Positions 1,670 through 36,620 of a stretch of 64,000 nucleotides of DNA are shown piece by piece. Position numbers and translations under genes: made by a program. Where the stretch lies: positions 4,704,001-4,768,000 of the forward strand of contig OY761556.1 of the NCBI GenBank assembly GCA_963664705.1, in the 5' to 3' direction. The stretch is from Acidobacteriota bacterium. Lineage in GTDB: Bacteria; Acidobacteriota; UBA6911. A model generated the notes under the pieces. It ran no database searches. It was given only the letters and a program-made list of their open reading frames with translations, and had not been told where the DNA came from. The first letter of the stretch is position 1. Each line of letters starts with the position of its first letter.

Positions 1670-1780
1670 GAATCTCTCAATTTAAAGGAGACATGCGTGG
1701 GGCTTCGAGTCCCTTACAGGCTGAACGTGAAAACGAGCGACTGAATTCGACAACCAGCCCCACCGCATGACCGCAAATCC

Positions 1781-1819
1781 CACCGGCCGGTGCCTACATG
1801 CCCGGCCGGTGTTTTTTTT
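1781..1819 (+). terminator. Rho-independent terminator
   Basis: caccggccgg-N-ccggccggtg stem followed by a T8 tract, downstream of the cytochrome gene. Confidence 0.8.
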
Positions 1820-1828
1820 GGAAATCAC

Positions 1829-2002
1829 TTAATTTTTAGATTCCCCTTCAATGGATTCTGGCAGCGGAGCATGGGTTACCTGATTGAAACAGACATAGCA
1901 GATGGGCCCTCTCTCCGTCTGCATTTTCATCCACTCAAACTCCGGTCCCAGATCACGCCCGCAAATGAAGCAGTTATTGGCACCTGTACTGTATTCTTCC
2001 AT
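1829..2002 (-). CDS. Small Cys4 (CxxC...CxxC) zinc-finger-like protein, 57 aa
   Basis: CFIC and CYVC motifs, GGAGAGG RBS before the ATG at 2002, and an FNR-like promoter upstream. Confidence 0.6.
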   Translation of the reverse strand: MEEYSTGANNCFICGRDLGPEFEWMKMQTERGPICYVCFNQVTHAPLPESIEGESKN

Positions 2003-2077
2003 CGATGGATCCTCTCCCCGAAAACGGATACGGTCCTTTTTCAAAAATATCGTTAATGCAAAAACAATAGGCTGTAA

Positions 2078-2091
2078 TTGACCTGCATCAA
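2078..2091. promoter_or_regulatory. FNR/CRP-family binding site
   Basis: TTGAC-CTGC-ATCAA, in the divergent intergenic region. Confidence 0.7.
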
Positions 2092-2189
2092 GTTTCCCGC
2101 ATTTACTCCGTACTAGAATCGTATCTGAGGAATATGTCTCAGCAAAACTGCCGGATCACCCGGCAGCTCGATGATCGGGAGAATATCTG

Positions 2190-2774
2190 ATGAAACTGAT
2201 GAAAGGGTCGATGATCCTGACTCTCTTTGCTTTCCAGGTCGCGACCGCTCCTTCGAACGCACAGATGCAGTGTATATGCCACAGCAAACAGCCTGCCATG
2301 AAACGGATGCACGAAATGACAGGCAAAACCGGCTGCGGCAATTGTCATACCAAAGACGAAAACCTGATGTCGAAGAGGGAGGGGAAGGATCCGGCCGCCA
2401 AAGCCAACACGGAAAGACGACAGAAAGAGGATCGTCTTTGCGTCCCCTGCCATAGCAAAAAGGAAGGCATCGCAAAGGAAGCCGGTCTCAACAAGGACGC
2501 GATGGGAATTTCCGGTACGCTCTATTGCCCCAAGGACAAGCTGAAGCTTCCTCCGGATAGCAAACGTTGTCCCAAATGCAGCGGTCCTTTGTTGAATATG
2601 GATGCTCTCATGGCAACTTCAGCCCAAAGCCCTTCGAACGACATCTGCATGAATTGCCATTTGAGTGAAGAAATCCAGCAGATCAAACGGCACACTATTT
2701 TCAATAATGAAAAACTCAAGAAATGCCTGGATTGTCATACCGGACACAGCGATTGCGGCAACTGCCATCACTGA
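2190..2774 (+). CDS. Secreted small multiheme cytochrome c (5 CxxCH + 1 CxCH) with an internal CPxD..CPxC knuckle
   Basis: Signal peptide; CGNCH, CVPCH, CMNCH, CLDCH, CGNCH and QCICH motifs. Confidence 0.8.
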   Translation: MKLMKGSMILTLFAFQVATAPSNAQMQCICHSKQPAMKRMHEMTGKTGCGNCHTKDENLMSKREGKDPAAKANTERRQKEDRLCVPCHSKKEGIAKEAGLNKDAMGISGTLYCPKDKLKLPPDSKRCPKCSGPLLNMDALMATSAQSPSNDICMNCHLSEEIQQIKRHTIFNNEKLKKCLDCHTGHSDCGNCHH

Positions 2775-2840
2775 CAATCTGAAAACCGGGAGCATCTCCA
2801 TCTCCCGGGAATTGGAAAGGGAGTCGCTCCCGGCAGTAGT

Positions 2841-2882
2841 TCCAGCCTGATTCCCTGCCGGGTCAGGCTGGAGTCCAAAAAA
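2841..2882. terminator. Stem-loop, probable terminator
   Basis: tccagcctga..tcaggctgga stem with an adjacent A-tract. Confidence 0.45.
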
Positions 2883-2889
2883 CAAATCC

Positions 2890-2931
2890 TTGACCTGGAT
2901 CAATTACAGACCGGCGGATTGCATGAATAAT
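2890..2931 (+). promoter_or_regulatory. FNR/CRP box with class II promoter
   Basis: TTGAC-CTGG-ATCAA (2890-2903), overlapping ATTACA, 17-nt spacer, then AATAAT (2926-2931). Confidence 0.7.
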
Positions 2932-2977
2932 GGAATCGATAGTGTGGACACAGCGGATGTTATGAAAGGAGCATTGC

Positions 2978-5353
2978 ATGGCTGATTTAGCTGGAGTAAA
3001 CGGAACCAGAAAAGATTTCAGGGTTGTCGGAAAGCCGAACCTTCCGGGAGTCCTGTCCTGGTCGCAGGCAACGGGTGCTGCAAGATTCGGAATTGACTAT
3101 GCCGTTCCAGACATGCTTCACGCCAAGTTTCTCCGCAGTCCTTATGCGAACGCGCGCATCAAGAGTCTCGACATCACAAAAGCCAAAGCCGTTCCAGGCG
3201 TTGTGGATATTGTTACCTGGGAAGACGAGGACATGAAGAAACTGAGCAGCGGTGGCGACGGCGGCTTTTTCATGGGACCCAGCCAGGCCTTCCTGGACAA
3301 TCTGGCCGATCAGGAAGGAGCCGAAGTGGGCGTTATCGTCGTGGCAGAAAATCCAGATATCTGCGATGAGGCGCTGCGGGCGCTCGTTGTGGAATGGGAA
3401 GAGTTGCCCTTTGTTGTGGACCTGCGCAAAGGACGAACCGCGGATGCGCCGGTCATCCGGCCGCCTTCGCCGGCCGGGAAAGGTGGCGGTGGATTTGGAA
3501 TGGGCGGAGGCAATAATCCTCCCAAGAAAGGCAATGTCAGTTATTCCAATACCAATGACGGCGATGTCGAAAAGGGTTTCAAGGAAGCGGACCACATCCT
3601 CGAATATGACGTGAACACCTCCGCCTTTGCCGGTCATATCCCCAATCCTCTGGGCACCGTTGCCTGGTGGTTCGATGATCCTCTGCACGGAGAAGGCAAA
3701 AGCCTCCAGATAGAAGGGGTTCCCTGGGGACATGATCAGGTTGCCGGCATGAACCGCGTGTCGCCCGACAAGGTTTTCCAGAACTGCATGTTCGTAGGCG
3801 GCCGGTACTGTGACTGGGGCATCCGCAAATCGCAGCAGATCACTCCGCTGCTCGCCAAAAGAGCCGGCCGACCCGTTCGATGCGTCAACACCAGGGCGGA
3901 TATGTACGATTTCAACCTGTGTCAGCGTTACGTGCATATGAAGATTGGATTCAAAAGCAACGGCCTGATTACGGCCATAGAAGATTTTTCAATTGCGGAT
4001 GGTGGGATCCGTGGAAGCTCGATGTTCGGGAATACGATGGATCAGACCTACGGGCCCTATTTCACCACCAAGTGCCTGAACGTCAAACAGAGCATGGAGG
4101 TCGTGGACAGCAACACAGGAATGATGTATGTCAGCGGCCAGCACAATCCCATGGGCTGGGATACACTGATGGTTGGCATCTATCTGATTGCCGAAAAGCT
4201 CGGCAAAGATCCGATCGAAATCGCGACGCTGAATCTGCACGGGCCGACATCTCAGACCGACACGAATCCCGTACCCAGCTATGAGGCCTGCGTTGCGGCT
4301 GTAAAAAAGATGATGAACTGGAACTGGCATCAGACGGGCGCCAAAAAGCTGCCGGACGGCCGTATGCACGGAGCCAGCTTCCGCTACAATCAGTGCCCGC
4401 GCCATTCCGTATCGGGATACAACCCCAAACTCGAACTCCGCAACGGCATCGTGCATCTGCCCTCCAAGGGTCCCATCATCGGCCACTATGGCCTGGAAGC
4501 CAATGCCATGGTCGTGGCGGAAGAACTTGGCCTGGAGTTCAAGGATATCCGCATTGATCTGGATCACCACGAAATCTACCGGCCGTTTGGCGGTGGCAGT
4601 GACGGATCCACGGCATCTTCCTGGGCGGTCAAAGAGTGCGCCAACAAACTGAAGAAGCTGATCCTGGAAACTGCCATCGAGGAGGCAAACAATCCTCCCG
4701 CTCCCGCCGGCTTCGGCATGGGTCCCGGCGCCAAACAGGCTCCCAATCCATTCAAGGGCCTGAAGCCTGAGGACCTCGATATGCAGGGCGGCAAGGTGAT
4801 TGTCAAAGCCGATCCAAGCAAAGGCCTGCCGCTGGCGCGCGCCGTCCAGGCGAATCTGTTCGCAACCTATGCGGGAAGACCTCCGCAAGCTCTCTGGGCT
4901 CAACGGGGAAAAGCATTGGACACAATGAACGTGGTTACATGCGAAGTGGCCGTGGACACGGAAACGGGAGAAGTGGAAATCACCCGGTTTGGTGTAGTCA
5001 CCGATACCGGAAAGGTCATGCGGCGGACATCGCTGGAAAGCCAGATCGATCAGGTGATGGATTTCACCAAGGGTTGCCAGCTTCAGGAAGAATTTATCTA
5101 CGATCAGAGGACTGGAGTAAAACTCAGCACGAATATGTTCGAGTACAAGAAAGTCAGTATGCTGGACATGCCTCGAGTGGATATGGAGCTTCTGGAAACG
5201 CGCGCCGGCAATGCCTGCTACGGGTCCAACGGCATCAGCCATTCTCTTGCCAGCACACATCTGGTCATCATGGCCATCCACAACGCGATCGGCAAGTGGG
5301 TGGAATCGCCGGCCACGCCGGACAGGGTGCTCAAAGCCCTGGGCAAGGCGTAG
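2978..5353 (+). CDS. Xanthine dehydrogenase/aldehyde oxidoreductase family molybdopterin-binding subunit (atypical active site)
   Basis: LHAKFLRSPYANARI N-terminal motif, EVAVDTETGEVEI and C-terminal PATPDRVLKAL; AAGGAG RBS. Confidence 0.88.
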   Translation: MADLAGVNGTRKDFRVVGKPNLPGVLSWSQATGAARFGIDYAVPDMLHAKFLRSPYANARIKSLDITKAKAVPGVVDIVTWEDEDMKKLSSGGDGGFFMGPSQAFLDNLADQEGAEVGVIVVAENPDICDEALRALVVEWEELPFVVDLRKGRTADAPVIRPPSPAGKGGGGFGMGGGNNPPKKGNVSYSNTNDGDVEKGFKEADHILEYDVNTSAFAGHIPNPLGTVAWWFDDPLHGEGKSLQIEGVPWGHDQVAGMNRVSPDKVFQNCMFVGGRYCDWGIRKSQQITPLLAKRAGRPVRCVNTRADMYDFNLCQRYVHMKIGFKSNGLITAIEDFSIADGGIRGSSMFGNTMDQTYGPYFTTKCLNVKQSMEVVDSNTGMMYVSGQHNPMGWDTLMVGIYLIAEKLGKDPIEIATLNLHGPTSQTDTNPVPSYEACVAAVKKMMNWNWHQTGAKKLPDGRMHGASFRYNQCPRHSVSGYNPKLELRNGIVHLPSKGPIIGHYGLEANAMVVAEELGLEFKDIRIDLDHHEIYRPFGGGSDGSTASSWAVKECANKLKKLILETAIEEANNPPAPAGFGMGPGAKQAPNPFKGLKPEDLDMQGGKVIVKADPSKGLPLARAVQANLFATYAGRPPQALWAQRGKALDTMNVVTCEVAVDTETGEVEITRFGVVTDTGKVMRRTSLESQIDQVMDFTKGCQLQEEFIYDQRTGVKLSTNMFEYKKVSMLDMPRVDMELLETRAGNACYGSNGISHSLASTHLVIMAIHNAIGKWVESPATPDRVLKALGKA

Positions 5354-5416
5354 GATGATTAAAAAAGCGCTGCGCTGGATCGGAGATTGAAGGTTCTAAG
5401 CCATTGGAGGCAGTGC

Positions 5417-6703
5417 ATGCCAGAGAGATCGGGTTCCAAACGAGTACGCCCTTTGATTATTGCAGCGGCATTATGTGTCCTGCTGTCTGGTACCAGGCCC
5501 ATGACATCCGCTGCCGCTCCTCCACAAGAGCAATCACCTGGTGGCTTCCCTCAGGGAACGGCAACACCATCAGAGGACTGCGGCAAATGCCACAGGGCAA
5601 TCTATCGTGAGTTTGCCTATGGTTTCGGCGCGGATCTGAAATTCGGTGGAATGGTTCTACAGTCATTAAGGGAAGACCAACTCTTCTTGCCTGGAAATTT
5701 TGCTCCTGGTGCGACGGCTCATTCCGTTGCCGGCGTTGATCCGTTTCCTATCCATGCTCGTGAAACAGAGTCCAAGGGACGATCCTGCAACGTCTGTCAC
5801 TATCCTCAGCCTTTTATGATACCATCGCTGGACTCTCCGGAAACCGCCAAGCCCGCCGCGCGCCCCAAGGACAAAGAAGCGGGCGGAATGACCTGTGCAA
5901 GTTGCCACTTAACTCCTGATGGAAAAATTCGAGGGCCGCATACCGTTAGTGCGCCTCATGCAACAGTGTCGGATGCCAATATACAAACTGCTGCCATGTG
6001 CGCCTATTGTCATAGTTCAGGAAAGCGTGTAAGCGGAAAACAGACGCAAACATTCTTCGAATGGCGTGAAGATTTCAACAAACCCGGCCTGGGTCCTCAG
6101 CATTGCCAAAACTGCCACATGCCCAAAACAGTCCGAAAAACCGCCGAGGCTTTTGATGTCCCCGATCGAGCCGTCTCCAGACACTTGTGGATCGGTGGAC
6201 ACGCACCGCAGCGACTCAAAAGTGCTCTCAACATGGTCCTTCTTCAGCCGGACAAGAACGGGGGAAATCTCGAGTTTCACATTATTAACCTCGGGGCAGG
6301 CCATTCAGTACCCACAGGGTCCAATCGACGGGGAATGTATCTGCGAGCAGAAGCCATTGATGCAAAGGGGAAAGTAATGGACAGACGCCAATGGCTGTTT
6401 GCGCCATGGTATGGAGATCGCCCGGATGACCGCAAATTTCTCGAGGAAGATAAAGGCCGAGACGATGCCACGGCGGCGATGCAGGCCGATGCACAAGGTC
6501 CGCATGAGAACATCATTCGCGCAGGCGAGGAGCGCATTCTCTCGTGGTCGCCGACGCTGAAGGCGGGCAGCTATACGATCAAGGCCCAGCTCGTCTACGA
6601 CCTGAACCGCTATAACGATCCCCAATATGCAGAGGATCAAACAGAACTTACTGTCACCTCATTGAACATGAAGATTGGCCTCGGAGCCGGCTCGGGCAAA
6701 TAA
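5417..6703 (+). CDS. Secreted pentaheme c-type cytochrome (c554-like) with C-terminal beta domain
   Basis: Signal peptide; CGKCH, CNVCH, CASCH, CAYCH, CQNCH; GHSVPTG motif. Start uncertain (5387 or 5417). Confidence 0.85.
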   Translation: MPERSGSKRVRPLIIAAALCVLLSGTRPMTSAAAPPQEQSPGGFPQGTATPSEDCGKCHRAIYREFAYGFGADLKFGGMVLQSLREDQLFLPGNFAPGATAHSVAGVDPFPIHARETESKGRSCNVCHYPQPFMIPSLDSPETAKPAARPKDKEAGGMTCASCHLTPDGKIRGPHTVSAPHATVSDANIQTAAMCAYCHSSGKRVSGKQTQTFFEWREDFNKPGLGPQHCQNCHMPKTVRKTAEAFDVPDRAVSRHLWIGGHAPQRLKSALNMVLLQPDKNGGNLEFHIINLGAGHSVPTGSNRRGMYLRAEAIDAKGKVMDRRQWLFAPWYGDRPDDRKFLEEDKGRDDATAAMQADAQGPHENIIRAGEERILSWSPTLKAGSYTIKAQLVYDLNRYNDPQYAEDQTELTVTSLNMKIGLGAGSGK

Positions 6704-6762: not shown

Positions 6763-7314
6763 TCAGAACCAGAATTCAGGGTATTTGCGCGTTTTCGGAA
6801 TGTTGTTCACCAGCAGCGCCACTGCGAGCATGATCATTGCGCCCAATGCGGTCGGGATAATTGGATAAAGGAATCCCAGGCTCTGGACTTTCTCGCCGCC
6901 GATAACGGCAATCAGGGCGGTAGCTCCTCCAGGTGGATGCAGTGTCCTGGTAATGTGCATCAATGCCAGCGCTGTGGCCACGGCAATTGCGGCGGCAATC
7001 CAAATGCATGGGTGAAACAGCTTGTACGATGCGACTCCGATAAATGCCGAAAGCACATGCCCCCCAACAAGATTCCTGGGCTGAGCCAAAGGGCTCTTGA
7101 TAGCACCATAGATCAGAATGGCGGAGGCGCCAAACGATCCAAGCATGAGGCCCATGGCTGAGCCCTCAAGAATGACGTAGTTCAGATAGCCCACGGCCGA
7201 GATCCCAAGAAAAGCGCCAATCCATGACCAGATGATTTCGGAAATACTCACACGGGGCGGCGTGCAGGAAACCGCGCGTAATTTGTTTAGCAATTTATTC
7301 TCAGCGAAAAGCAT
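6763..7314 (-). CDS. HPP family membrane protein (putative nitrite transporter)
   Basis: GSFGASA, SPLAQPRN and HPPGGA signatures with 4 TM segments. Confidence 0.92.
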   Translation of the reverse strand: MLFAENKLLNKLRAVSCTPPRVSISEIIWSWIGAFLGISAVGYLNYVILEGSAMGLMLGSFGASAILIYGAIKSPLAQPRNLVGGHVLSAFIGVASYKLFHPCIWIAAAIAVATALALMHITRTLHPPGGATALIAVIGGEKVQSLGFLYPIIPTALGAMIMLAVALLVNNIPKTRKYPEFWF

Positions 7315-7358
7315 ACGACGGCATCCTCAAGTGATATTGCGGATAGGAATGAGCGCTT

Positions 7359-7973
7359 CTAGAAAGATATGCGGACAATATCTGCGCGAGATACGATCCC
7401 GACAAGCCGCCCCTGCGAATCAACCACGGGAACCCGGTTGATTGCTTTCTCCGTCAGAATAGCGGTGATCTGCCGCAGCGTCGCCTGCTCATCCACCGTT
7501 ATTGCGGGAGACGTCATTATGTCGGCCGCTTTCCCATCCCGTATGGTCATCGCGATGCAGCAATGATTCCTGATGCAGTCGGCAATGACGCCCATCAGGC
7601 TCTTTGCCGTGCGATCTCCCATATGAGAACAGAAATCCTTTTCAGAGATAATCCCCTGAACCCTCATTTCCCTATCAATAACAGGAATTCCGGAAATTTC
7701 GTTTGCGGCTAATATCTCTGCCACCTCGCTGAGTGGAGTGTCCACCCGCACCGTAAAGACCTTTTGCGTCATCAGGTCGCGCGCCTTTACGGAGTTGGCA
7801 ATCCGATCCAGTGCATGTCTGAAGGAGTGGGAATAGATTTCCTTTAAATCAGCGGGAGTAATATCCAGATATCCCGGTATCTCCTTCATCGCCTCATAGA
7901 TGTCTGCATCACTGATTTCCGGCTGGAATAGCGACGATTTTGTTCCGCCATTATCATGCTTGGCTTTTGTCAC
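7359..7973 (-). CDS. CBS domain protein
   Basis: Two CBS repeats (ISGIPVID..GIISEKD; INRVPVVD..GIVSRAD). Confidence 0.9.
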   Translation of the reverse strand: MTKAKHDNGGTKSSLFQPEISDADIYEAMKEIPGYLDITPADLKEIYSHSFRHALDRIANSVKARDLMTQKVFTVRVDTPLSEVAEILAANEISGIPVIDREMRVQGIISEKDFCSHMGDRTAKSLMGVIADCIRNHCCIAMTIRDGKAADIMTSPAITVDEQATLRQITAILTEKAINRVPVVDSQGRLVGIVSRADIVRISF

Positions 7974-8017
7974 GTTCGTCCAACCCTTATCTGTGCTTTA
8001 GTCATTGATCCTATCGC

Positions 8018-8602
8018 CTATCTTCCCTGGCATTGGATATTGTCCATTAGAGCCTTGCCGGCAAGCGAGAGATACCGGATACCACTTTCCTCCAGGATCC
8101 TGCTGAGCGGCTGGGCAATTGTCGAAAGGTGTCGCTGGATGAAGTTTTGGGACGCTTCGCAGGTCGTTTCAGCGTGCTCGGAATCGTCGCAGGCCAGAGC
8201 GTATGCCTCTTTGAGACGAAGGTATCCAATGAAACCTGCTTCTACGGACACATGATCGCATGCCTCGCGCGTTGCGGGGTCGTAGCCAAAGACCTTATAG
8301 TATCCGGCCAGTTCGGATATCAGGCTGCCCAATTCCACTCCCTTATGATAGCTCGCCTCGCGTGGAGATGCCGGGCCACCCGGACCAAACAGCGAGTGAT
8401 AAGAGGACGCAGAGGCTTCGGCCTGCGCAGCCTCCGTGGCGGATTTCAGATCAGCGTCCGGGACAAGGGAAGAAAGCGCCAGCAGACGCTCGTTCCATCC
8501 TTCGCCCGGTGATTCAAACAGCAGGCTGATCAGCCGCCATCGGGCGGAGTCCATAATCATTTCCTGCTGTCTGCTGTTGAAGGAATGTAATTGTGTGCTC
8601 AT
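8018..8602 (-). CDS. TorD/DmsD/NarJ-type molybdoenzyme maturation chaperone
   Basis: EACDHVSVEAGF and FIQRHL motifs; ATGA overlap with the upstream gamma-subunit stop. Confidence 0.8.
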   Translation of the reverse strand: MSTQLHSFNSRQQEMIMDSARWRLISLLFESPGEGWNERLLALSSLVPDADLKSATEAAQAEASASSYHSLFGPGGPASPREASYHKGVELGSLISELAGYYKVFGYDPATREACDHVSVEAGFIGYLRLKEAYALACDDSEHAETTCEASQNFIQRHLSTIAQPLSRILEESGIRYLSLAGKALMDNIQCQGR

Positions 8603-9465
8603 TGCTGTTTTTGCCTCAACAACGGAATCCATCCCGTCCGCATTTTTCTGGAACCGATTTCCCCCTGGGAGCCTTCCCATACGGCAAACGCTGCCTGGGT
8701 TCGTAAACCGGGGCCAAGCCCCGACGGCAGACTGCGATTGATTACAACCTTCCACCCGTCCGTTGTCCTGATCCCTTTTCCCGCGGACCCGGCACGGACC
8801 TCAGGCTTCAATGTACCAGGCCCTTCCGCGAGGAGGTCTTCCACCGGCGTTTCCCTCGGCCCGTTTCGCATGTTCCCTGCCGCCCGCGCCGGCGCATAGC
8901 GCATTGCCATTTCCTTTTGGCTTGCGGAGCCTGCCCCCAGAGGCTGTGCCTGGAATGGATAGTGATCGACGGCAGCGTTGGGATATAAATCCCTGATGCT
9001 GTTGCCTCTTCCATCAACCCAGGCCTGCCAGTCCGCTCGCCAGAGGGTGAGTTCCACCGGACGGTTCGCCTCGCCCATCTGTGGTGACGGCGGTTCCTTT
9101 GCGATCGTTTTGGGAAGTTGTACCGCGCAGCCGTCGACGGAAACTCCAGGCCCTGGAGCATCATCTTTTCGCGGATCCAGCCATTGCAGCCGGAATGCTA
9201 TTCGGCTTCCATCTGTCATGGCTCGCACTCTGACTTCGCGGGTTGAAGCCTTCATCAGGCGTGGATCTGCAACATCCTGCAGAAGCAGACCTGCCGCGTA
9301 TTCGGGAAGCTGATCCCAGATTGGATCTCCGGGATCCGTCGAAAGAGCAGAGGCCGGAACCGCCACGACTTCGGTGGCCGCGGGCGGCACCGTGCGGCAA
9401 CCGGCGACGGTCAACAACACCGCCAGAACGGCAAGCGCGAGGCAACTGCGGAATACATGCCGCAT
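8599..9465 (-). CDS. nxrC: DMSO reductase family type II enzyme heme b gamma subunit (EbdC/NxrC-like), lipoprotein
   Basis: IAFRLQWLD, PQMGE (Met ligand), AFAVWEG..RK (Lys ligand); lipobox VAGC; AAGGAGG RBS. Confidence 0.78.
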   Translation of the reverse strand: MRHVFRSCLALAVLAVLLTVAGCRTVPPAATEVVAVPASALSTDPGDPIWDQLPEYAAGLLLQDVADPRLMKASTREVRVRAMTDGSRIAFRLQWLDPRKDDAPGPGVSVDGCAVQLPKTIAKEPPSPQMGEANRPVELTLWRADWQAWVDGRGNSIRDLYPNAAVDHYPFQAQPLGAGSASQKEMAMRYAPARAAGNMRNGPRETPVEDLLAEGPGTLKPEVRAGSAGKGIRTTDGWKVVINRSLPSGLGPGLRTQAAFAVWEGSQGEIGSRKMRTGWIPLLRQKQQ

Positions 9466-9475
9466 GAAATCCTCC

Positions 9476-10603
9476 TTAAGGACAATTGGTGCGAATAATC
9501 TGATATTTCGAGTCATATGCGGCGCGAATGTGCACGGGTTCCGTTAGCGGTACGCGGACGAGTGCTGCGCCCTTTTCATCCATGCCCGTTACGGTCTCGC
9601 CTTGCCGGGCCCATCGATGAATGATGCTTTCGGTGGAACCAAAGAGGCAGAGCAGTCCTGCAAGGTCCGCGTCCTTAGCGGCGGATCGATATGTCTTTCG
9701 TGCCGCGTCCACCCCCGGACCGAACATCTGCTTCAGAAACGGCATAGACACATGCAGTGGCGGGATGTAATAGATGTTCGGCTCCAGGCCAAATTGCGGG
9801 AAGAGCGGAAGCGCAACCTTGCGAATGTGTACCAGGTAGTCGATGGGGTTGTCGGCACGCGCTTTCCCCGGCTCCGAAATGAACCCGGACATTCGGATCT
9901 TCCCGATGCAATTTACAAAACACTGCGGCTGGAGGCCCTGTTCCCGTTTCGGGTAGCATGCAATACATTTTTCTCCGGTGCCGGTCATCGGGTTGAAAAA
10001 CGATTTTTTGTAGGGACAGGCCCTCAGGCATTCCTGGTATCCGCGGCATCGCCCCTGATCCAGCAACACGATTCCGTCTTCAGGGCGTTTATAAATCGAG
10101 CCGCGCGGACAGCCGGCCAGGCAGGCCGGGTAGGTGCAGTGATTGCAGATGCGCGCCAGATAAAAGAACCAGTTCATGTGCGGCAGTGAAAAGGCAGCGC
10201 CTTTATCCACCTGGCCCGTGCAATCATCTTCGCCTGTGTTGGGATAGGCATAATCATCCGACGTCGGTTTCCATCCGAGGATCCGCTCCCCTGCGGGCGC
10301 CGCTTCAAAAATCGTCTGGCCTTCGTACCGGCTTCCCTGCCACTTCTGACTGCCCAGCGATTCAAGCAGTTTCACGTCCCACGCCAGCGGATAGCTGCCG
10401 TACGGCTTGCTTTCAACGTTGTTCCAGAGCATGTATTCCTGGCCCACACCGGAGGTCCAGGTCGTCTTGCACGCCAGGGTGCAGGTCTGACACGCGATGC
10501 ATTTGTTAATGTCAAAGATAGCGGCAAACTGCTTTTGAGGACGGCTTTCCGGATACCAGTAAGACATCTGCCTGCCAATCTGCCAATTGTTGACCCGAGC
10601 CAT
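9476..10603 (-). CDS. nxrB: Nitrite oxidoreductase / nitrate reductase beta (Fe-S) subunit
   Basis: [49 protein letters not shown] and EKCIACYP motifs. Confidence 0.9.
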
Positions 10604-10605
10604 GG

Positions 10606-13600
10606 TTATTCCTCCTTCGATCCGGTAATAAATTCCCCTGCCAGGTACCGGTTCATTGGCGAGGATTCATAGCGAGGCCGAATGCCGAGAGCTGCAGGCC
10701 GCCAAAGCCCCGTCTTATCAATTCCACCCGCTTCAGCTCGGGTGATTTTGACAATGGCTTCGCGGGGAGCCCCGGTCGGGCAATGCACATCCGGCAGGAA
10801 TCCTTTTCCGATGCCCTGCCCATACACTCCTTTTCTTACAAGTGAATCGGTCATCAGTGTCGGTTTGAGCCAGCCTCTCGTGGGCGACTGATGCGAGCCG
10901 GAGCGGAACATTGCCTGATAATTGGTCCTTGGGTTTTTGGCCAGACCATCCGCACGGTTTTTCTGACCCTCCACAGAGCCGGGCGTCGCACCATACATGT
11001 TGAACCACATGCGCGTGACACCTCGCGGCGTGCCCGGGTAATAGCGGGCGCGGCACAGGAGCCGGGCAAATTCCATATCACGCTTGTTATTCTGCCAGCC
11101 TCGGAAGGGCCGGTCTTCCGGATCGCCGTCAATCCAGACGTAATCGCCATCCTGTACTCCGAGTTCTCTGGCATCGGCCGGGTTGATATCCACATAACCC
11201 TCGGCCACGAAGGGACTGCGCTTGTCGCGTCGATAGACATCGCCAAACGGCCCAAAAAGAACCGCGATCATATCGGTATCGATAGGCGTGGTGTGGGCTC
11301 CGTGGCGAAACTTCGGCGTGTGGAATATGAATCGATATCCTTCCTGAATACGAGGGTGCGCGGATTTGCGCACTTCCTCCCAGGTCATAACCACATTCCT
11401 GCCGCAGCGCGTTTCGCACGAAAGGTCTGTGCGAGCCACGCCATAGGACTCCGGCCCGGCAGGTCGGATCGCTTCATGCCTGGGAGCGACAATCACATTG
11501 GGTTCATAGAAGGTGGAATCGACCGGTTCGCGATGAACAGGCAGGTTCTCGCCTGCCTCGATAAATTCATTTTCCTCCCGGTAAAACTCGAGTCGTCCGC
11601 TTTTGGTGTACCATGGCCGCGAATCCGCAATTTGCTCATACCCGACGGCCTTTGGCGTCGTCCGGCTATTCATCAGCGCGGGCACACCCTCCTTCGCTTT
11701 CGCTTCCAACTCGGCAAATTTGTATCCTTTCGTGTTGGTGGAGTGATCCAGCACGCGCTGGAGATAAACATCCGTGCGGCCTTCGCGAACAAACTTCCAG
11801 TAGTCATTGAAGCGATTGTCTCCGGTCAGCTCGGCCAGTTTCGAACCAACCAAGGCCAGGACCTCGATGTCTCCAATGGTATTGAAGATTCGCTTGAGCG
11901 GCGTTCGCGGAAAAACCTGGAGAAACGGATTCGTTACCGAAGCGGTCATATCGGGATGCTTGAGCTCTGACCATGAATCGACACCAAAGACAATATCCGC
12001 CCACTCGCAGGAGGTAGACCACCACCATTCATTGACCGCAACCATCTCAATGCGGGGAAGAACATTCACAACCGTGTTGTAATGCCATTTGACATTCCCC
12101 AGGATCGAGTTGGCGTTGGCAAACCACAACGACTTCGTAGGCGACGGCACATGTGTCGTCCCGGTGAGCACCTTTTTGCCGACGCGAAGAATGTGGTCCT
12201 CGTGGTTGTAATAGTGTGCGGATTCAGCCTTCCAGAGTTGGCGGGGGCGTGCCGGCTTCTGGGGATCCAATTCAATGTCAAAAGGATTTTCGTTGATGTA
12301 TTGCGGGGAGCCATTGAACAGTGAAACGCGATAATTGCCGGCATACGACCCGACATTCCCGCTGATCTTGCCCACATTCCCCGTAAGTGCAGCCAGTAGA
12401 AATATGTCCCGATCTTTGTTGTCGTTGTTGAAGAACTGATTGGGCCCCATGCCTATGGCAAAGAGCGTGGTCCCCGGCATTTTTGCGACATCGCGCGCAA
12501 GCGATTCCACGGCCTGCGCCGGAGCCCACGTCAGCTCCTCCACCGTTTTGGGGTCGAAATGCGCGGCATATTCACGCACCAGATCGAACACGGGCCGACA
12601 ACGGACCTTTTTTCCATCCGCCAGAGTTACTTCCACGGAACCATCCAGCCGCGCCTCCCCTACACCGGAGTTCTTGCCGACCATATCTCTGGTAAGAGGC
12701 TTGGGGGCACCGGACTTCATATCCCACCATACATAGTCTCCCCACTCGTCCCTGATTTTTTGCGGAACAATCATCTGGTCGTGAGTTTCGGGAGGAGGTT
12801 CTTTCTCTCCGGCTTTTAGTATTTTTGTGCTCTTCAATTCGGCGGAGGTCCCACCGAATACATCCTGAGCCCGCAGGTATTTCAATGTATCCATGCGAAC
12901 AAGAATCGGCAGATCCGTCCAGCGGCGAACATAATCCAGGTCATAGAGCTTCTCTCTCATGATGACGTGGGCAAGGCCGAGCGCGAGTGCCGGAGTGGTG
13001 CCGGGCCGAACGACAATCACATCGTCTCCCTTGCTCGCTGTAGCCGAGTATTCACAGGCAATAACCACAACCCGGACTCCCTTGAGCCGTGACTCCGTAA
13101 GCCAGTGGGCATCCGGCATTTTGGTGGCAATCCAGTTCATCCCCCATACCACAAGAGTCTTGCAGTGCTCTACCGCCGAAAGATCGAATTCAACCGTCTG
13201 CTGCCCGGTAACCATCGGGTGTCCCGGAGGCAAATCCGTATGCCAGGAATAATTGTCAAATCCCTTGCCCCCCTGTGCCGCGTCGGGACCGACCTTTCGA
13301 ATGTGCTCATCGAGCAGCGCGATTGAATTTGCCATTCGATACATGCCAAATACGCGGGTGATGCCCAGCAGAGGCATGCCGCCGCGGAATTTGAGCGCCT
13401 GTGTCCCAGCCCCTTTCATTGCGTCAATAGTCAGTTCATCGTAGTGCTGTGCTTTGAGTCTCCGCCTGCCTTCCTCCCCGCTGTAAGTCTGAGCAATGTT
13501 TTTGAGAGCAGCGGCCGCGATTTTGGCGGCTTCATCATGCGAGATCCGCACCCACTGATCCCGGCCGCGATTGAAGTATTTGCGCAACGGGAGCCCATCG

Positions 13601-14049
13601 CTTTCACGAGGAAACCCATCCTTGTACCATTGCTGGAATCCCGTGCGAACCATGCACTGGTTGACTCGGCGATCTCCATAGAACCTGCGCGTAAGAGCCA
13701 ACCCCTTTTGGCAGACACGCGGATCCCATCGGTTCGTAGTACGGTTTCCGGCAAGGTCGGTGGCCTCACCGTAGCGCATGGTCGGTCCAATACGGGTGAT
13801 AATCCCTTCGCGCACATAAGCATTGAGGATGCAGTTGTGTGTGTCATTGGGCGCGCACAGGAAAGTAAACTTCGAATCATATTTCCAAAGGTCCCGATAT
13901 ACGCGCTCCCAGCCGCGATCCGGATAGGAAGCCAGCGGGTTGGTGACGTTCTCGAGACCCCATGCCTCGCTGGCGGCGCTGACCAGTGCACCAAAGCCCA
14001 TGGCGGAAATCATCTCCAGGAATTCACGTCGCGGGATTTCACTTTTCAT
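10606..14049 (-). CDS. nxrA: Tat-exported nitrite oxidoreductase-like / periplasmic-facing nitrate reductase alpha (Mo-bisPGD) subunit
   Basis: 1147 aa; PRREFL twin-arginine signal; [18 protein letters not shown]0 motif; YSWHTDLP Mo-Asp motif. Confidence 0.88.
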
Positions 14050-15701
14050 TTGCTTCCTCCTGCCCAGGAACGGATGTAGGCAACGATTGTTTCGATTTCA
14101 GATGGCGCCAGAGTCATCCTGGCCGGAGAGGGATTCAAAAATCCTTCCATGCTTGTTCCGCGTCGTCCTTTGCTGATGGTTTCAACCAGGTAGGTGTCGG
14201 TTGCATTGGTCAGAAGAACTGAATTATTCAGCGCAGGGCCTTCGCCCCCTTTCCCATCCTTGCCATGACATAAGGAACACGCTGAAATGAAGAGGCGCTG
14301 GCCGGCCGCGGCATCGCCGACAGCCCAGCGCGGCGGTTTTGGATCAGGTCGTATCTCTCCGCCACCTATTTGCCGCAGGTAATGAATGGCCTGAAAAATC
14401 TCTTCCTGTCTCAACCCTCCGTCTTTCTTTCCCCACGCCGGCATTTTCCTGCCGGGACGCCCCTGGGTTACGGTCTCGGTCAGAAACCCGTCCGACACAA
14501 GCGGCAGAAAATCGGGACTTCCAATGGCCGGAAACGTCTGACGGCCGGGAGCCCGTCTCCCCTGCCCGCGGTTGCCGTGGCAGCCGGCGCAGAATGCACC
14601 AAAAACGGTGAGGCCATCCGAAGCAAATTCTCTCTCTCCGAATTTCTCAATCCTGAGTCGGTCTTTTGGCAGGTAGGACCCGGGAAGCTCGCGCCGCCTC
14701 AAGCTGAGCGTATACAGGGTGAGCAGTTCTAAATCCTCATCCGCAATCGCGACCTGCGGCATCAACGACCCGGCAACAACAGCCGCCGGGGACTGAAAGT
14801 GATTTACGAACCAATTCTCAAGCGAATGTTTGCCTTGTACATTGGCAAAAGCTACCTGTCCCGGATCCTTTTCTCCGACTCGAGTGAGGTCGGGGCCCTC
14901 ATCTCCTCCTGTCCCGCTGACTTTGTGGCAACCCAGGCAGCCGCTCGATAGGAACAGCGCTTTTGCTTCCATCAGCCTGGGCGCGCCCATTTGTGCGGCG
15001 AGGTAAACGGAAACCAGGGAGAGGTCCCGGGCATCGATTGGCGCAAAGGCGGTATGCCACGGACCGGATGCAGCGCCGGCAGATTTTTCGAGGTGTTTTC
15101 GATACCAGTCTTTGTCGTATCCGGAAATGGCCGTACGCGAAAGATCCGGTCCTTCCATGCCAAAGCCATCGGGCCGAAGAACGCCTCCCCGCGAATCTAC
15201 TCGATGACAGGCAAGGCAATCCAGCCGTTCAAACGCGCCTCTTGCCTCCCTGAATAATTCACGATTCGGGATGCCTGGAATCGCGTGACAGGTACCGCAT
15301 CCGGCCTGGCTGAGATTCCTGGGAATCATCGGCTCAGGCCAGAAGTGCACTTCACCATGGGCATCGAGCTTCTCGGTTGCAGCACCCTGTCCCCCATGGC
15401 AAATCGTGCAGCCGAAATCCGCCGGGTCATGGACAACCGCTTTGTGAGATGCCAGAACCCCATTCCCACGAATCCCCTGTTCACTGGGATCCATGCCCAC
15501 ATGACAGGAAATGCATCGGTCGCTTGTCCGGAGTCCCTGGCTGACCACCTGGCGAATACGAACCTTTATGGGGCCGTCCTCAGACGAAGTCGCTCGTTGG
15601 ATCCCGCACCACTCCATGAAGATATCCTGTGTTGCCGCAACAACCAGCAGCAGCAGGACTCCAACACTCGAAAAGAGCAGCAGGTATTTGTTCTTGTTCA
15701 T
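14046..15701 (-). CDS. Membrane-anchored heptaheme cytochrome c (Rieske/cyt b complex c-subunit)
   Basis: N-terminal TM segment; CISCH, CTICH, CGTCH, CLACH, CLGCH, CAGCH, CSLCH; overlaps the nxrA start. Confidence 0.87.
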
Positions 15702-15708
15702 GGCAGTC

Positions 15709-17262
15709 TCAGTGAGTGGGCCATTGAGATGGAGACCAGTAAAAAACCCAATTCGGTCCACGGAAGTAAGTGCCGATCAGGGTCAACACCAGGAATCCGC
15801 AGAGAAAACAGGTAAACAGGCCGAGTGCGCCGGCTCGGGTAGATTGAAAGCGCCTTATAAGCCAAATGGAATAAAGCGCATACAGCAGCGTGAGAACGGA
15901 CCCCGGGTTGAGGAATGTTATCAACAGCTGGGGAGCATGGGAAAACCACTCACGGATCCAGCCAAACCGGATGGCAATGGCCTCGATTCCGATGGCAAGC
16001 GCCAGCCCATAGGCGACAGAACCCAGCACCAGCCTCGCTCCATTGGGTCCGGCAAACCATTGGCCAGTGCCATCCTGCTCCCGCTCCAGAAATGGAATAA
16101 GCCCAAGGCCAAGCAATACGATCGCCGGGATGCCGAATCCCCCCATAAAGGCAGAGAAGGAAACCATCTCCTGAAGGCCAAGGAAATACCACGGTGCCTT
16201 GGCGGGATTTTCGGGAACTGCAGGGTTCGCCATTTCCTTGAGAGGAGCATCCCATACAATGGACAGAGCGAGACAGAGAAAGACCGTTAGCATCAGCACC
16301 GCCAGTTCCGCATAAAAAACATGAGGCATGGCAGGGATTGTGTTTTCAGGCCCATTTCCTACAGCCGGAGTGCGACCGCGGACAATAGCCGCCAGGTGGT
16401 AGGTTCGGCTGGGTGCTTCCGAAAAGACGGGATAGGTGCCTTCAGGCAACGGACCTAATCTTTGATCCGCATCCGCGGGGCGTGCCAACCCTCCATCTTT
16501 TCGAATGCGCCAGAAGTGAACTCCCATTAGAGCCGCAAGTGCCAGGGGAAGAATCATCACATGAAGCAGGTAAAAGCGAATGAGCGCGACCGGACCCACC
16601 ACATCCGAGCCCAAAAGCAGAAGACGCTGCATCTCGCCTGGATCAAACCATCCGGTAATTCCCAAGGCGTCCGTGACTTCTCTTGGGGACTGGGCAATAT
16701 TGGTGCCGATCGTAATTGCCCAATAAGCCAATTGGTCCCAGGGAAGCAGATATCCCGTGAACGACAATGCCAGCGTCACGACCAGCAGTCCCATGCCAAT
16801 CAGCCAGTTGAATTCCCTTGGCTTCCGATATGCCGCGGTAAAAAAGGTCCGAGCCATGTGGAGCAGTACCGCAATGACCATAATGTTCGCGGACCAGCGG
16901 TGAAGATTTCTTATGAATCTCCCGGTCGGCACAATGAAGTGGATGTCCTTGATCGACTGGTATGCAGCATCTGGGTAGGGCTTGTAGTAAAACATCAGAA
17001 GCACACCGGTCACAAACGCAATCAGGAAGGCGGCAGTACTGGCAATTCCGAATCCCAAAGTGGTGGTCCATCGGAGAGTCCACCGATGAACTCGCGTAGA
17101 GTGCAAATGCAGGAAGAGATTGCCAAATATGAAACTGGACCTGGTCCGGTCGGTAACAGGCTTTCCGCTTCGGAAGGCTGCCTCGATGATGCGCCGCGGC
17201 GTGGCCTTGAGATTATTCCAGATTTCGCTGAGGGCATTTACTGGCGGAGAGGTGGCGTTCAT
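15709..17262 (-). CDS. Cytochrome b subunit of Rieske/cytochrome b complex (b6 + subunit IV fused)
   Basis: [38 protein letters not shown] and PAKAPWYF (PEWY-equivalent) motifs. Confidence 0.92.
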
Positions 17263-17744
17263 AGCAGCACCTTCGTTCCGGCGGGAACGGTGGCGCCCTG
17301 ATCAACCAGCACTTTTCCCCCGGCCGCACTCACTTTGAGCCATGCCAGCGGTTTCGGCGCCGGACCTTTGGTCACGGATCCATCCGCAGCAAAACGAGAA
17401 CCGTGGCACGGACATTCAAATCCTTCTGCATTAATTTTTACAATGCAGCCAAGATGAGTACAGACCGTGGTGACAGCCCACGTCCCTTCCGAATCGCGGA
17501 ACAGCGCCACGGAGCGTCCCGGCGGCGAAAACGCCTGACCCGGCTGCAGCGCGTCGGGAAGGGCTACGCTGAATCGCTTGGAGGGAGCGGACAATATTGC
17601 GGCTTTGGGCAGACGTGCCATACCCAGGATGGCGAGGAAAAATGCTGTCCCCGCCGCCCAAAGAGACATGAGTCCAAGCATATCTCTTCTCGGTATTGGT
17701 TCCGGATCCAGACGTGAGTGGGCGGCTTTCGGTGTGGTGGTCAT
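17259..17744 (-). CDS. Rieske 2Fe-2S subunit, Tat-exported
   Basis: PRRDMLG signal; CTHLGC and CPCHGS motifs. Confidence 0.92.
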
Positions 17745-19654
17745 GCGGACCTCCAATGAGCGGAAAAAACAACGCGTTCCATCGTAATCGCTTGTACCGG
17801 GCAACGGGCGACGCACAGCGCACACCGAATGCAGCGGTCTTCATCCTTCAGAATTGCGGAATTCTGCGAACGATCGGCATCAGGGCCTAGCAGGCTCTCC
17901 GTCATGGCATCCAGTTCGCTATCGTCGGAGAGCTGATCCATCGGCGTCAGCTTAAGGCACTGTGTTGGACAAACTTCCGCGCAGCCTCCGCAGAGCACAC
18001 ATCGGCTTCCATCAAACACAGGGGTCACGCCGCAATCAAGGCACCGGGAGGCCTCTTTGACAGCCTGCGGCTGCGTGTATCCCGTCTCCACAACAGTATC
18101 GGGGTGCATCATTCTTGCTTCCGGCAGGGCGATGGGAACAGGAGTGCGGCGCAGCGATTCATAGCCGTATTCACGCCGATAGCCTTCCTGAACAACGTGG
18201 CGGGTCAGGATTTCCGAATATAGCCTTCGTCCTGTGACATATTCATAGACAGAGCGGGCTGCAGCTTTCCCGGAAGCGACAGCATCGATCAACAATCGTG
18301 TCCCGTGTGCCAGATCACCGGCAACGAAAACACCCGGCGCGGTCGTAGCCAGGGTCGAGGGATTGATCCTGGGCCAACCGGGCCGATCCATCCCGACATC
18401 CGCACCTCCGTCATCGAGGAAAGACAGCATCGGTGTTTGGCCCACTGCAAGCAGCACCGTATCGCAGGAAATCGTTGCACGCTGGCTGTCGTCAAATACA
18501 GGGCTGAAGCGATGCTCGCTGTCGTACACTCTGACACACTTGCGAAAGACTACACCGGTCGGCAAGCCGGATTCGTTACGCTGAATCTCAACCGGTCCCC
18601 AACCATTCAAGCGCTCGATTCCCTCTTCATCTCCTTCAAGAATTTCAGCCGTATCGGCCGGCATTTCCTCCAGACCTTCAAGAGAAACCAGCCGGACTAA
18701 AGCCGTGGAGGCGAACCGCGCCGCGGTTCGTGCCGTATCGTACGCAATCTGTCGAAGAACGGTCCGGGCAACATCATAGGCAACGTTGCCGCCTCCGATC
18801 ACGACAACCTCTCTGCCGATCTCAAACGGAAGGTCCAAAGCCACGGCTCTTAAAAGATCTACGCCTCCAAACACGCCCGGCCCATGTTCTCCCGGAAGTC
18901 CAAGCCCACGCGATGACTTGGCACCAACCGCGATGATGACTGCCGAAAAATCTCTGCGTAAATCAGCAAAGCGGATATCGCTCCCAACTGTAATGCCGCA
19001 TCGGATGTCGACGCCCAAAGCCCGGATAACATCCACTTCCCGGGCTATCACAGCCGGAGGGAGGCGATAGCCGGGAACTCCCAACGCGAGCATGCCCGCA
19101 GGAATTCTTTCAGTTTCAAAAACGATCGGCCTGAAATTCAGCAGGGCCAGATCATGGGCTGCAGAAAGTCCGGCCGGTCCCGCCCCGATGATTGCTATCT
19201 TCTCGCCTGAGCCCGGTTTGATTTTCCCATCCAGGCCGGCCCGCAGCAGGCTCGCCATCTCTTCAGCATCGCCACAGACCGGAATCCCATGGAGTTGCGT
19301 CTGCCGCAGAACATCTTCACGAGACCCAGCCTTCATTCCAGCATGAGAACATGCAAAGCCTTTTAGTGCGCGGATCGAGAGGGGCCGATCGTTGGCCACA
19401 AAATGTCCGTCATCGTCGACACGCGGCACCTGTCCGCGACGGCAAGCCGCTTCGCAGGGCGCACCGCAAATCCGCCCGCAAATCGAGGCAAATGGATTCG
19501 GACCGCGCGCAATCCAATAGGCCTCCTCAATCCGTCCTTCGGCAATGGCGCGTACATAGCCCCGCGCATCCGTATGAACCGGGCATGCCACCTGGCAGGA
19601 AATCAGATCCCGATGATAGTTGTCTCCTGGAAGATGCGCCTTTAGTTTGGGCAT
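17741..19654 (-). CDS. NAD(P)H-binding FAD/Fe-S oxidoreductase (GltD/NfnB/DsrL-like) with C-terminal 2x[4Fe-4S]
   Basis: [47 protein letters not shown] and [12 protein letters not shown] motifs. Confidence 0.9.
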
Positions 19655-19793
19655 TTTGGCGGAGCTCCAGGGCTTACCCTGATACGAAATAGCAGCATGC
19701 AAAACCGGTCCGGCATTTGTCTTGCTCCTTGGCTTTTTGCAGGATGTTTCAGCCAGTGTGACGGAAAAATAAGCCAACTCGCCTGTCGTGTAA

Positions 19794-19807
19794 TTGATCT
19801 GAATCAA
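19794..19807 (-). promoter_or_regulatory. Perfect FNR/CRP-family box upstream of the respiratory operon
   Basis: TTGAT-CTGA-ATCAA. On the minus strand it overlaps ATTACA, followed by 17 nt and TATTTT. Confidence 0.8.
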
Positions 19808-35890: not shown

Positions 35891-35929
35891 GTATAGACTG
35901 TATGTGCGATACATAGAGGGTTGATTGGC

Positions 35930-36610
35930 ATGGGAGTCACGGAACGGAGAAAACGGGAAAGAGAGTCCAGGCGCGAGTTGGCCATTGATGCAGCGATGAG
36001 CATCTACGAAGAGGAAGGCTATCACGCCATTACCATGGAAAAGATTGCCGAACGGTCCGAACTGAGTCGTTCAGTGCTCTACCTGTATTTCAAAAGCAAA
36101 GAAGAGATACTGGTTAGTGCAATCCTGACCCACGCGGATTACTTCGCACAGGTTCTCACGGAGGTTTATGTAAACCGTGAGGATTCGAAAACCCAGTTAC
36201 TGGAAAAGCTGTGGGAAAGCTTCCAGAAATTTTATGAAAAAGACCCGGTGACCTTTACAGCCTGGCAGTACTTCCACCAACGGGACGTCGTCGGCAGTCT
36301 TCCGGAGGAATTGCGCGACAGCCTTCACCAGGCAGGAGCCCGTGTCGTGGCTCTCCAGCACAAAATTATCGCTTACGCCATCGAACAAGGCGTGTTTGTC
36401 GAATGCGATCACCGAACGCTGGCGGAAGTCATTTGGTCTGCCTTTTTGGGCATCATCTATATAGAGCGCAGTAAGAAGGCCTTCTCCCGCAAGAACCACC
36501 AGAATGCCACGCAGGATATGGCAAGGAACATCCTGGCGCAGGGTGTGGTTAAGGCTATATCGTTGGAAATAAACAATTTCGATCTGGAGTTCAGGCGGAT
36601 TATTCAATAG
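35930..36610 (+). CDS. TetR/AcrR family regulator
   Basis: TMEKIAERSELSRSVLYLYFKSKEE HTH. Confidence 0.93.
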   Translation: MGVTERRKRERESRRELAIDAAMSIYEEEGYHAITMEKIAERSELSRSVLYLYFKSKEEILVSAILTHADYFAQVLTEVYVNREDSKTQLLEKLWESFQKFYEKDPVTFTAWQYFHQRDVVGSLPEELRDSLHQAGARVVALQHKIIAYAIEQGVFVECDHRTLAEVIWSAFLGIIYIERSKKAFSRKNHQNATQDMARNILAQGVVKAISLEINNFDLEFRRIIQ

Positions 36611-36620
36611 GGAGCATCGT

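Follow-up and report, generated by a model that had tools for sequence, protein, structure and literature searches.

The 64,000-nucleotide window analyzed here (positions 4,704,001 to 4,768,000 of the forward strand of contig OY761556.1, assembly GCA_963664705.1) comes from an Acidobacteriota bacterium whose 6.9 Mb genome is a single contig, 98% complete and 6% contaminated. At 6763-19807 it carries ten co-oriented minus-strand open reading frames, as described in an original prediction made from the sequence alone, and the Pfam and NCBIfam families agree with that list. The set begins with a cytoplasmic GltD/NfnB/DsrL-like flavoprotein with flavin adenine dinucleotide (FAD) and iron-sulfur (Fe-S) domains (17741..19654, 637 aa; Pfam Pyr_redox_2, Fer4_20 and Fer4), a Rieske [2Fe-2S] protein anchored by a twin-arginine translocation (Tat) signal (17259..17744, 161 aa; CTHLGC and CPCHGS motifs), a cytochrome b in which b6-like and subunit IV-like parts are fused (15709..17262, 517 aa) and a membrane-anchored heptaheme cytochrome c (14046..15701, 551 aa; seven CxxCH motifs). 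These are followed by the Tat-exported alpha subunit of a molybdoenzyme from the family of type II dimethyl sulfoxide (DMSO) reductases (10606..14049, 1147 aa), a beta subunit with four Fe-S clusters and no signal of its own (9476..10603, 375 aa; TIGR03478-like, under the cut-off), a heme b gamma subunit resembling EbdC and subunit C of nitrite oxidoreductase (NXR), with a predicted lipoprotein anchor (8599..9465, 288 aa; PF09459), and a private chaperone of the TorD/NarJ family (8018..8602, 194 aa; PF02613, TIGR03482-like). A CBS-pair protein (7359..7973; PF00571) and an HPP-family membrane protein (6763..7314; PF04982) are co-oriented passengers.

The likely start codons are ATG at 19654 for the flavoprotein, 17744 for the Rieske protein, 15701 for the cytochrome c, 9465 for gamma and 8602 for the chaperone, and these shorter, revised starts fit because the homolog coverage of the shortened proteins agrees with them. 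A 688-residue reading of the flavoprotein is probably too long, since its TTG at 19807 is the first base of a perfect palindrome, TTGAT-N4-ATCAA (19794..19807), that lies upstream of the first gene by about 150 nt. With the revised starts, the eight core genes from flavoprotein to chaperone overlap by 4 nt or are spaced by 2-10 nt, and the CBS and HPP genes are each preceded by a 44-nt gap. The eight genes are probably co-transcribed; scans for sigma-70 promoters and terminators gave no signal above chance.

These eight genes, flavoprotein to chaperone, are a conserved unit. Relatives were taken as the best 80 of 517 alpha-related stretches confirmed in a GTDB scan (72-90% identity); the nearest are from Acidobacteria metagenome-assembled genomes (MAGs) at 90% and 84% identity, and the groups represented include Acidobacteriota, Planctomycetota, Myxococcota, Binatia, Eisenbacteria, Zixibacteria, Desulfarculaceae and others. 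The flavoprotein, Rieske, cytochrome b and cytochrome c genes are found in order at 52 of the 53 loci whose upstream sequence reaches 6.2 kb or more, and beta, gamma and chaperone at all 58 loci with at least 4 kb downstream. The synteny search that the original prediction had proposed thus returned the same full order in 42 of the 43 loci that extend this far on both sides, too often for the grouping to be chance, and the sole exception, L071, has an assembly gap at that spot. The CBS protein and the HPP protein, the latter as a transporter, had been counted as members of the module, but neither occurs at any of the 53 loci that extend 5.5 kb or more downstream. HPP was found in one of five related carrier genomes (G007, the closest same-genus genome), where it and CBS lie together, some 10 kb away from the operon. 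A role for HPP as the module's dedicated nitrite transporter was rejected, as the gene is not conserved and a periplasmic enzyme needs no transporter.

An even draw of 301 same-phylum genomes, in which a carrier had to have a full-length alpha with 68% identity or more, contained 27 carriers. All 27 have the flavoprotein, with alpha and flavoprotein adjacent on one contig in 25; three have a more distant form of it, and the two of these that were examined have a split cytochrome b. Inside the host genus the unit is patchy (4/25 genomes). Two further genes recur at some loci: a 165-aa membrane protein with no Pfam match lies between alpha and beta in 17 loci (L003:13426-13962 and related Blastocatellia), and a DUF7009 gene recurs in 13 loci (L003 and related Blastocatellia).

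The alpha subunit matches NXR-A of Protein Data Bank (PDB) entry 7b04 best (845 bits), far ahead of 4ydd, a type II DMSO reductase that we take to be PcrA (168 bits), and of NarG (122 bits). Its Tat motif is R7-R8, with the arginine pair present in 73/73 full-length orthologs, and the predicted FS0 motif CxxxDxxxC is indeed present as C65-x3-D69-x3-C73 together with C113, with N68 adjoining D69. D272, the Mo ligand, as well as T309, M534, Q538 and K913 are found in 79/79 orthologs. [quoted passage not shown] The Cys motifs of beta are conserved among orthologs, and gamma aligns to 7b04 chain C, with M130 in 66/66 rows and K274 in 65/66; their counterparts in NXR-C are the heme ligands Met155 and Lys305 (PMC8387239; published work is cited here from the parts available to us). 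Cys23 of gamma is conserved in 63/66 rows, a column count that supersedes the 48/67 matches of a loose lipobox expression. Because alpha has a Tat motif and this Cys follows a hydrophobic stretch, the catalytic trimer is predicted to sit in the periplasm on a lipid tether. The Tat arginine pair, the EbdC-like gamma, the CxxxD FS0 motif and 24% identity to NarZ set the enzyme apart from canonical cytoplasmic NarGHI. Perchlorate and chlorate reductases are likewise a poor match, given the score to 4ydd and the fact that the genome of the host, 98% complete, yielded no match to PF06778.

The upstream genes have the features of a Rieske/cytochrome b complex: a Tat Rieske protein with both boxes, four heme b histidines and a Qo motif. 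In the Rieske protein the arginine pair and S116 are each found in 55/55 aligned sequences and F118 in 52/55, and a Ser/Phe second sphere predicts a high potential. The cytochrome b heme ligands H121, H135, H234 and H249 are present in all 59 aligned rows, the Qo motif P357-W358-Y359 (PWY without Glu) and R254/K255 in 58/58, and an extra histidine, His52, in 56/58, the other two being gaps. The heme cn Cys (CxGG) is absent from 56/56 aligned orthologs and also from the split variants L108 and L109, and Arg stands at what we take to be the position of the bc1-type Qi His. This is the only cytochrome b/b6 match in the host genome. An AlphaFold2 model of the cytochrome b (mean predicted local distance difference test, pLDDT, of 52; predicted template modeling score of 0.40) was too poor for a fold search or for His geometry. 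Further near-invariant residues of the protein are His54, His59, His314, Cys330, Cys485/Cys488 and the C-terminal His517. The cytochrome c has seven CxxCH motifs in 63/63 orthologs and a single N-terminal hydrophobic segment, and is likely the wire between the Rieske protein and the gamma heme.

The flavoprotein has its best PDB match in 9bov/9bp5, lacks any hydrophobic segment and is predicted to hold four Fe-S clusters; K98, C538 and C541 are invariant (51/51). The prediction of an NAD(P)H flavoprotein stands for the nicotinamide cofactor, with NADP(H) the less likely form: an SLE motif, present in 50/51 orthologs, stands where NADP relatives have YRR, which favors specificity for NAD(H) over NADP(H). 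Flavin-based bifurcation of the NfnAB type was rejected on the same replacement and because the eight-gene unit has no Nfn partner.

The closest counterparts of this front module are the NAD-linked Rieske/cytochrome b complexes of anammox bacteria, encoded at Kuste4569-74 and Kustd1480-85 (Hauser et al. 2025, PMC12954380; subfamily G, PMC5600118). Their flavoprotein subunits are 9bp5-like (the structure match for Kuste4570) with a Lys near the FAD-proximal cluster, and an extra b heme, bound by His43/His62, is predicted between the two cytochrome b monomers, an Arg or an Arg-Lys pair following some 204 residues later (PMC12954380). The operon shares the 9bp5-like FAD/Fe-S subunit with its Lys, the Ser/Phe Rieske protein (+335 mV as measured for Kustd1480; PMC12954380), a multiheme cytochrome c and the His and Arg-Lys pair; the spacing from His52 to Arg254 is 202 residues. 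His52 is also found in eight other flavoprotein-linked cytochromes b and is absent in Haloferax, which has no flavoprotein. The systems differ in that cytochrome b and subunit IV are fused here and lack the heme cn Cys, whereas the anammox proteins are split and have CxGG, with five helices in subunit IV (PMC12954380). They differ also in the acceptor, which is a nitrate/nitrite molybdoenzyme here rather than an HAO-like enzyme, and in host, the carriers of the operon not being anammox bacteria.

Co-folding, suggested earlier for the subunits, was run for cytochrome b residues 20-395 with flavoprotein residues 12-634 and three controls, and it lent slight support to an association: the pair scored 0.56 against 0.00 for the best control, with run agreement of at least 86% and partner pLDDT of at least 75. 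The mark used is reached by 116/157 solved pairs and 2/215 mismatched pairs, and scores of 0.60 or below include 18 of the solved pairs and both mismatched ones. We consider it likely that the flavoprotein is a true subunit of the complex.

The original prediction had compared alpha with the NXR and haloarchaeal pNar enzymes. We built two quick LG+G4 trees with SH-aLRT support only, the second with 25 rows dropped, long branches and near-duplicates among them; proxies P0423 and P0124 represent the NXR clade in place of named Kuenenia, Nitrospira, Nitrotoga, Hydrogenobacter and Thermogutta terrifontis sequences. In both trees the alpha relatives form a single clade (SH-aLRT 100) that falls outside the NXR clade. 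Counted together with Gaiellaceae, Natronococcus occultus and SAR202 proteins, it has as its sister group (support 95-96) the Kuenenia-like clade, whose members P0423 and P0124 score 1867 and 1590 bits to 7b04, and the two clades share 39-40% identity. Thermostilla marina, which respires nitrate, encodes a protein inside the alpha clade (GAB6165915.1) that is 75% identical to alpha. This species is described as a facultative anaerobe (PMC6995999). Among the other relatives, the N. occultus plasmid (L091:13527-19302) carries a 49%-identical alpha without Rieske or cytochrome b genes; it does not figure among the listed genes, and its open frame is without the N-terminal FS0 part. Other genomes of the host phylum (L085, L086 and L087) have a second, more Kuenenia-like NXR-clade enzyme, about 41% identical to alpha, and about 14 of the 301 sampled genomes have a match to such an enzyme.

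A comparison of substrate-funnel residues was divided in its outcome: the FS0 Asp pattern is present, whereas the Asn312 and Glu527 of lineages d-f are replaced by T309 and M534 in 79/79 orthologs. D69, T309, K913 and the arginine pair instead fit lineage g of the PMC8387239 referee file (Asp71/Thr312/Lys917), which is said there to hold Nitrotoga NXR together with the nitrate reductases of Hydrogenobaculum and Beggiatoa; the fit is one of pattern, as the tree holds no named lineage-g sequence. The FS0 Asp, which the original prediction had linked to Nitrospira/anammox NXR, gives no indication of direction, as the referee file treats the signal of these residues as phylogenetic and not directional. 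Reading direction from the FS0 Asp or from Thr/Asn312 was rejected for the same reason. The sister clade of periplasmic NXR and nitrate reductases holds both activities (PMC6050957).

Set against known enzymes, the operon resembles each in part. With Kuenenia stuttgartiensis NXR-ABC (7B04, PMC8387239) it shares the Tat alpha, the 3Cys/1Asp FS0 with adjoining Asn, the Asp Mo ligand, the Lys917 equivalent and a Met/Lys heme b gamma; it differs in having Thr for Asn312, Met for Glu527 and Gln for His531, in its separate clade at about 40% identity, in lacking an NXR-T gene in the unit, in the predicted lipid anchor of gamma and in having its own Rieske/cytochrome b complex. With the Nitrotoga/Hydrogenobacter clade (PMC6050957; lineage g) it has in common Asp71/Thr312/Lys917, a Cys rather than an Asp at the first beta cluster, a Tat alpha and the sister position to the anammox-type clade; Nitrotoga differs, with nxrABC and a chaperone only, a comparison made by pattern and with no named Nitrotoga or Hydrogenobacter sequence in the tree. 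The pNar locus of Haloferax mediterranei pHM300 (L092) has an analogous gene order (Rieske, cytochrome b, a small gene, narG, narH, EbdC-like gamma, chaperone), but its alpha is only 28% identical and belongs to a different clade, so the operon's alpha is not of the pNar clade; pNar also lacks the multiheme cytochrome c, the flavoprotein and the cytochrome b His52 motif. The nearest published order is that of Thermogutta terrifontis THTE_1506-1512 (PMC5673643): Rieske, cytochrome b, cytochrome c, NarG, NarH, third subunit and TorD chaperone. There, THTE_1510-1512 (cytochrome c1, cytochrome b and Rieske) adjoin narG/H/'I'/chaperone, complex III was proposed to serve nitrate respiration, and the organism was grown with nitrate; the 2017 paper took the enzyme as cytoplasmic NarGHI (PMC5673643). 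The order from Rieske to chaperone is already in print; a description of the whole eight-gene unit was not found in the literature searched, which did not cover subscription papers. Each half has precedent, and the eight-gene unit is widespread and uncharacterized.

The front module also occurs with other terminal enzymes. Among 16 hand-picked regions around more distant flavoprotein matches, three have the flavoprotein, Rieske, cytochrome b and a pentaheme cytochrome c directly 5' of clade II NosZ, which would join a NAD-linked bc complex to N2O respiration. These NosZ-linked modules lie at L102:6738-13881, L103:6873-13815 and L104:1633-8696 (TIGR04246 above the cut-off; nosD downstream in L102). 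One region (L096:4145-14033) has the module, 59% identical in cytochrome b and 53% in flavoprotein, 5' of another type II molybdoenzyme (921 aa, TIGR03479 above the cut-off) that has no assigned substrate; two have it before the same alpha clade, and in four no adjacent terminal enzyme was identified. This placement before NosZ and type II molybdoenzymes suggests a module that passes electrons from quinol on to reductases in the periplasm.

Genomic context favors nitrate reduction. The palindrome upstream of the flavoprotein gene, which we take as the Crp/Fnr-family consensus, is likely a site of anoxia- or NO-responsive control. The host genome has 18 perfect copies where 12.7 would be expected, and one of these precedes hcp. 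A relaxed form, picked after the data had been seen, is present in the 1.2 kb upstream of the flavoprotein gene at 24 of 52 related loci, many of them close kin, mostly 70-160 nt away, compared with 3% of resampled windows and one internal control window; it also precedes the host's qNOR and hcp genes. Rrf2, RIC, Crp/Fnr, YwiC or hemerythrin genes are nearby in 41/52 loci, and nrfA is present in 20/27 carriers versus 65/274 non-carriers, kin that are not independent. The host encodes NrfAH, a qNOR-like protein, menaquinone genes of the mqnA/D families, complex I (nuoD), alternative complex III (ACIII) with an A-type oxidase and a cydA-like gene (cytochrome bd); NrfH, qNOR, ACIII and cydA were assigned by reading the sequences. 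The host genome gave no match for RuBisCO, ACS, NapA, the chlorite dismutase family or a further type II alpha. Blanks for ATP citrate lyase and clade II nosZ in the host carry no weight, because those searches matched no control genome.

The reading we prefer, if tentatively, is that the operon encodes an anoxia-induced respiratory machine in which menaquinol is oxidized at Qo and its electrons part ways, one likely going to periplasmic nitrate and the other, with less certainty, to cytoplasmic NAD+. Menaquinol would be oxidized at the Qo site of the operon's own Rieske/cytochrome b complex, with the high-potential electron passing from the Rieske protein through the heptaheme cytochrome c, the gamma heme b and the beta Fe-S chain to Mo, where nitrate would be reduced to nitrite; NrfAH would take nitrite on to ammonium. 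The low-potential electron would pass from heme bP through heme bN and an extra heme b, predicted to be held by His52 at the cytochrome b dimer interface, to the four Fe-S clusters, FAD and NAD+, and the NADH would be re-oxidized by complex I or spent in biosynthesis. With menaquinone at -70 mV, NAD at -320 mV (PMC12954380) and nitrate at +420 mV (PMC8387239), the coupled reaction is feasible but tight, as it is about 0.24 V downhill before the cost of one charge crossing per turnover. Nitrate reduction is probably the function of the enzyme, and NAD+ reduction is somewhat more plausible than NADH oxidation. The earlier idea that the module is self-contained and links quinol and a nicotinamide cofactor with a molybdoenzyme for nitrate or nitrite in the periplasm is supported as the probable arrangement. 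That all of this takes place in one supercomplex, which by quinone-based bifurcation through a third b heme at the cytochrome b dimer interface draws on nitrate reduction to make NADH from menaquinol, is a more speculative proposal and one that we hold doubtful.

Several points weigh against the preferred reading. NAD+ reduction by the anammox complexes is itself a proposal (PMC12954380), and the match of His52 to the anammox extra-heme site is predicted from motif and spacing, with no Kuenenia alignment. Six of the 16 hand-picked regions hold flavoprotein paralogs (about 40-46% identity) without Rieske or cytochrome b among cbb3-oxidase-type genes, so that the family need not dock on cytochrome b. 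(These regions, L097, L099, L100, L101, L105 and L106, have ccoO-, ccoG- and ATPase-like neighbors, the CcoG and CcoO identities having been checked in one region each.) The likeness to T. terrifontis is by gene order alone, and the available parts of PMC5673643 do not mention a flavoprotein. The palindrome is perfect in only 1/52 relatives, and a heterotroph has little evident need for extra NADH. A self-contained chain in which NADH reduces menaquinone and menaquinol feeds a periplasmic nitrate reductase, with the flavoprotein running in reverse or only loosely attached, is a serious competitor; it ranks only a little below the preferred reading. NADH would re-reduce menaquinone from the cytoplasmic side, as proposed for FNR on b6f, in a downhill reaction; all evidence for the nitrate direction holds here too, DsrL-type flavoproteins are bidirectional (PMC7596348) and heterotrophic hosts may have surplus NADH. 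This chain is harder to square with a cytoplasmic-side quinone-reduction site that is not recognizable (no CxGG, and Arg at the presumed place of the bc1 Qi His), with complex I nuoD in the host and with the high-potential Ser Rieske signature, unusual for a plain menaquinol Q cycle (PMC12954380).

The direction of the molybdoenzyme could also be reversed. The carriers would then be overlooked, perhaps mixotrophic, nitrite oxidizers in which proton-motive force drives the bc complex backward, reducing quinone and NAD+; reverse electron flow from nitrite, which had been proposed alongside bifurcation, thus survives as a weaker reading, and we regard it as improbable. The closest solved structure is the bidirectional Kuenenia NXR (PMC8387239), the lineage with alpha's residue pattern includes the nitrite oxidizer Nitrotoga, and comparable claims exist for MAGs of Planctomycetota (PMC10732223). 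ACIII with an A-type oxidase, together with cytochrome bd, means that an oxygen sink for nitrite-derived electrons exists in the host. Autotrophy genes give little help to this view: RuBisCO family members occur in 4/26 other carriers, with one strong full-length match only, and the ATP citrate lyase family is above the cut-off in 1/26, in a search without any match among the control genomes. A Crp/Fnr-type box that the operon has in common with qNOR and hcp, the enrichment of nrfA in carriers and the use of the front module with NosZ, a terminal reductase, speak against it as well. A different substrate is a further alternative. Type II DMSO-family enzymes are often promiscuous, and the invariant M534 and Q538 near the Mo site replace Glu/Ala/Lys and His, unlike both the NXR-like and the NarG/NarZ rows, which bears on substrate; Y573 is aromatic, as in the 4ydd enzyme. 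Chlorate/perchlorate, selenate, iodate or some unknown oxyanion might then be reduced, with nitrate a side substrate at most. The chlorite dismutase family, present in 14/26 other carriers, is missing from the host and from the annotated recurring flank clusters, the recurring neighbors are nitrogen-oxide stress genes, and alpha scores 168 bits to 4ydd compared with 845 to NXR, so that we rate this alternative as rather improbable, too.

Other redox genes are encoded in the window. A converging plus-strand cluster at 50-6703 includes the tail of a decaheme cytochrome, a small pentaheme protein, a xanthine-dehydrogenase-family molybdoprotein and a second pentaheme cytochrome c. At 35921-43673, a three-gene set of the xanthine/aldehyde dehydrogenase family, with a regulator-like gene upstream, is followed by converging multiheme and monoheme cytochrome c genes, and at 54200-55905 a DUF5777 beta-barrel gene is followed by a small Rieske-domain gene bearing an arginine pair.

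Public names for the alpha protein are 'nitrate reductase', 'nitrate reductase / nitrite oxidoreductase' or 'molybdopterin oxidoreductase' only, and because of these mixed names it may be miscounted as nitrite oxidation or overlooked as nitrate respiration in surveys. The operon appears to place an anammox-type NAD-linked Rieske/cytochrome b complex in the same transcription unit as a defined high-potential acceptor enzyme, and the presence of the alpha clade in cultured Thermostilla marina could make a long-standing bioenergetic question testable. If the supercomplex proposal is true, such an assembly would be present in about one-tenth of sampled Acidobacteriota and in many other phyla and, looped through complex I, could move, per nitrate, as much as roughly three times the charge that NarGHI does. 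As a general plug-in, the front module would then power N2O reductase as well, and the anammox NAD-reduction hypothesis would come within reach in cultured heterotrophs.

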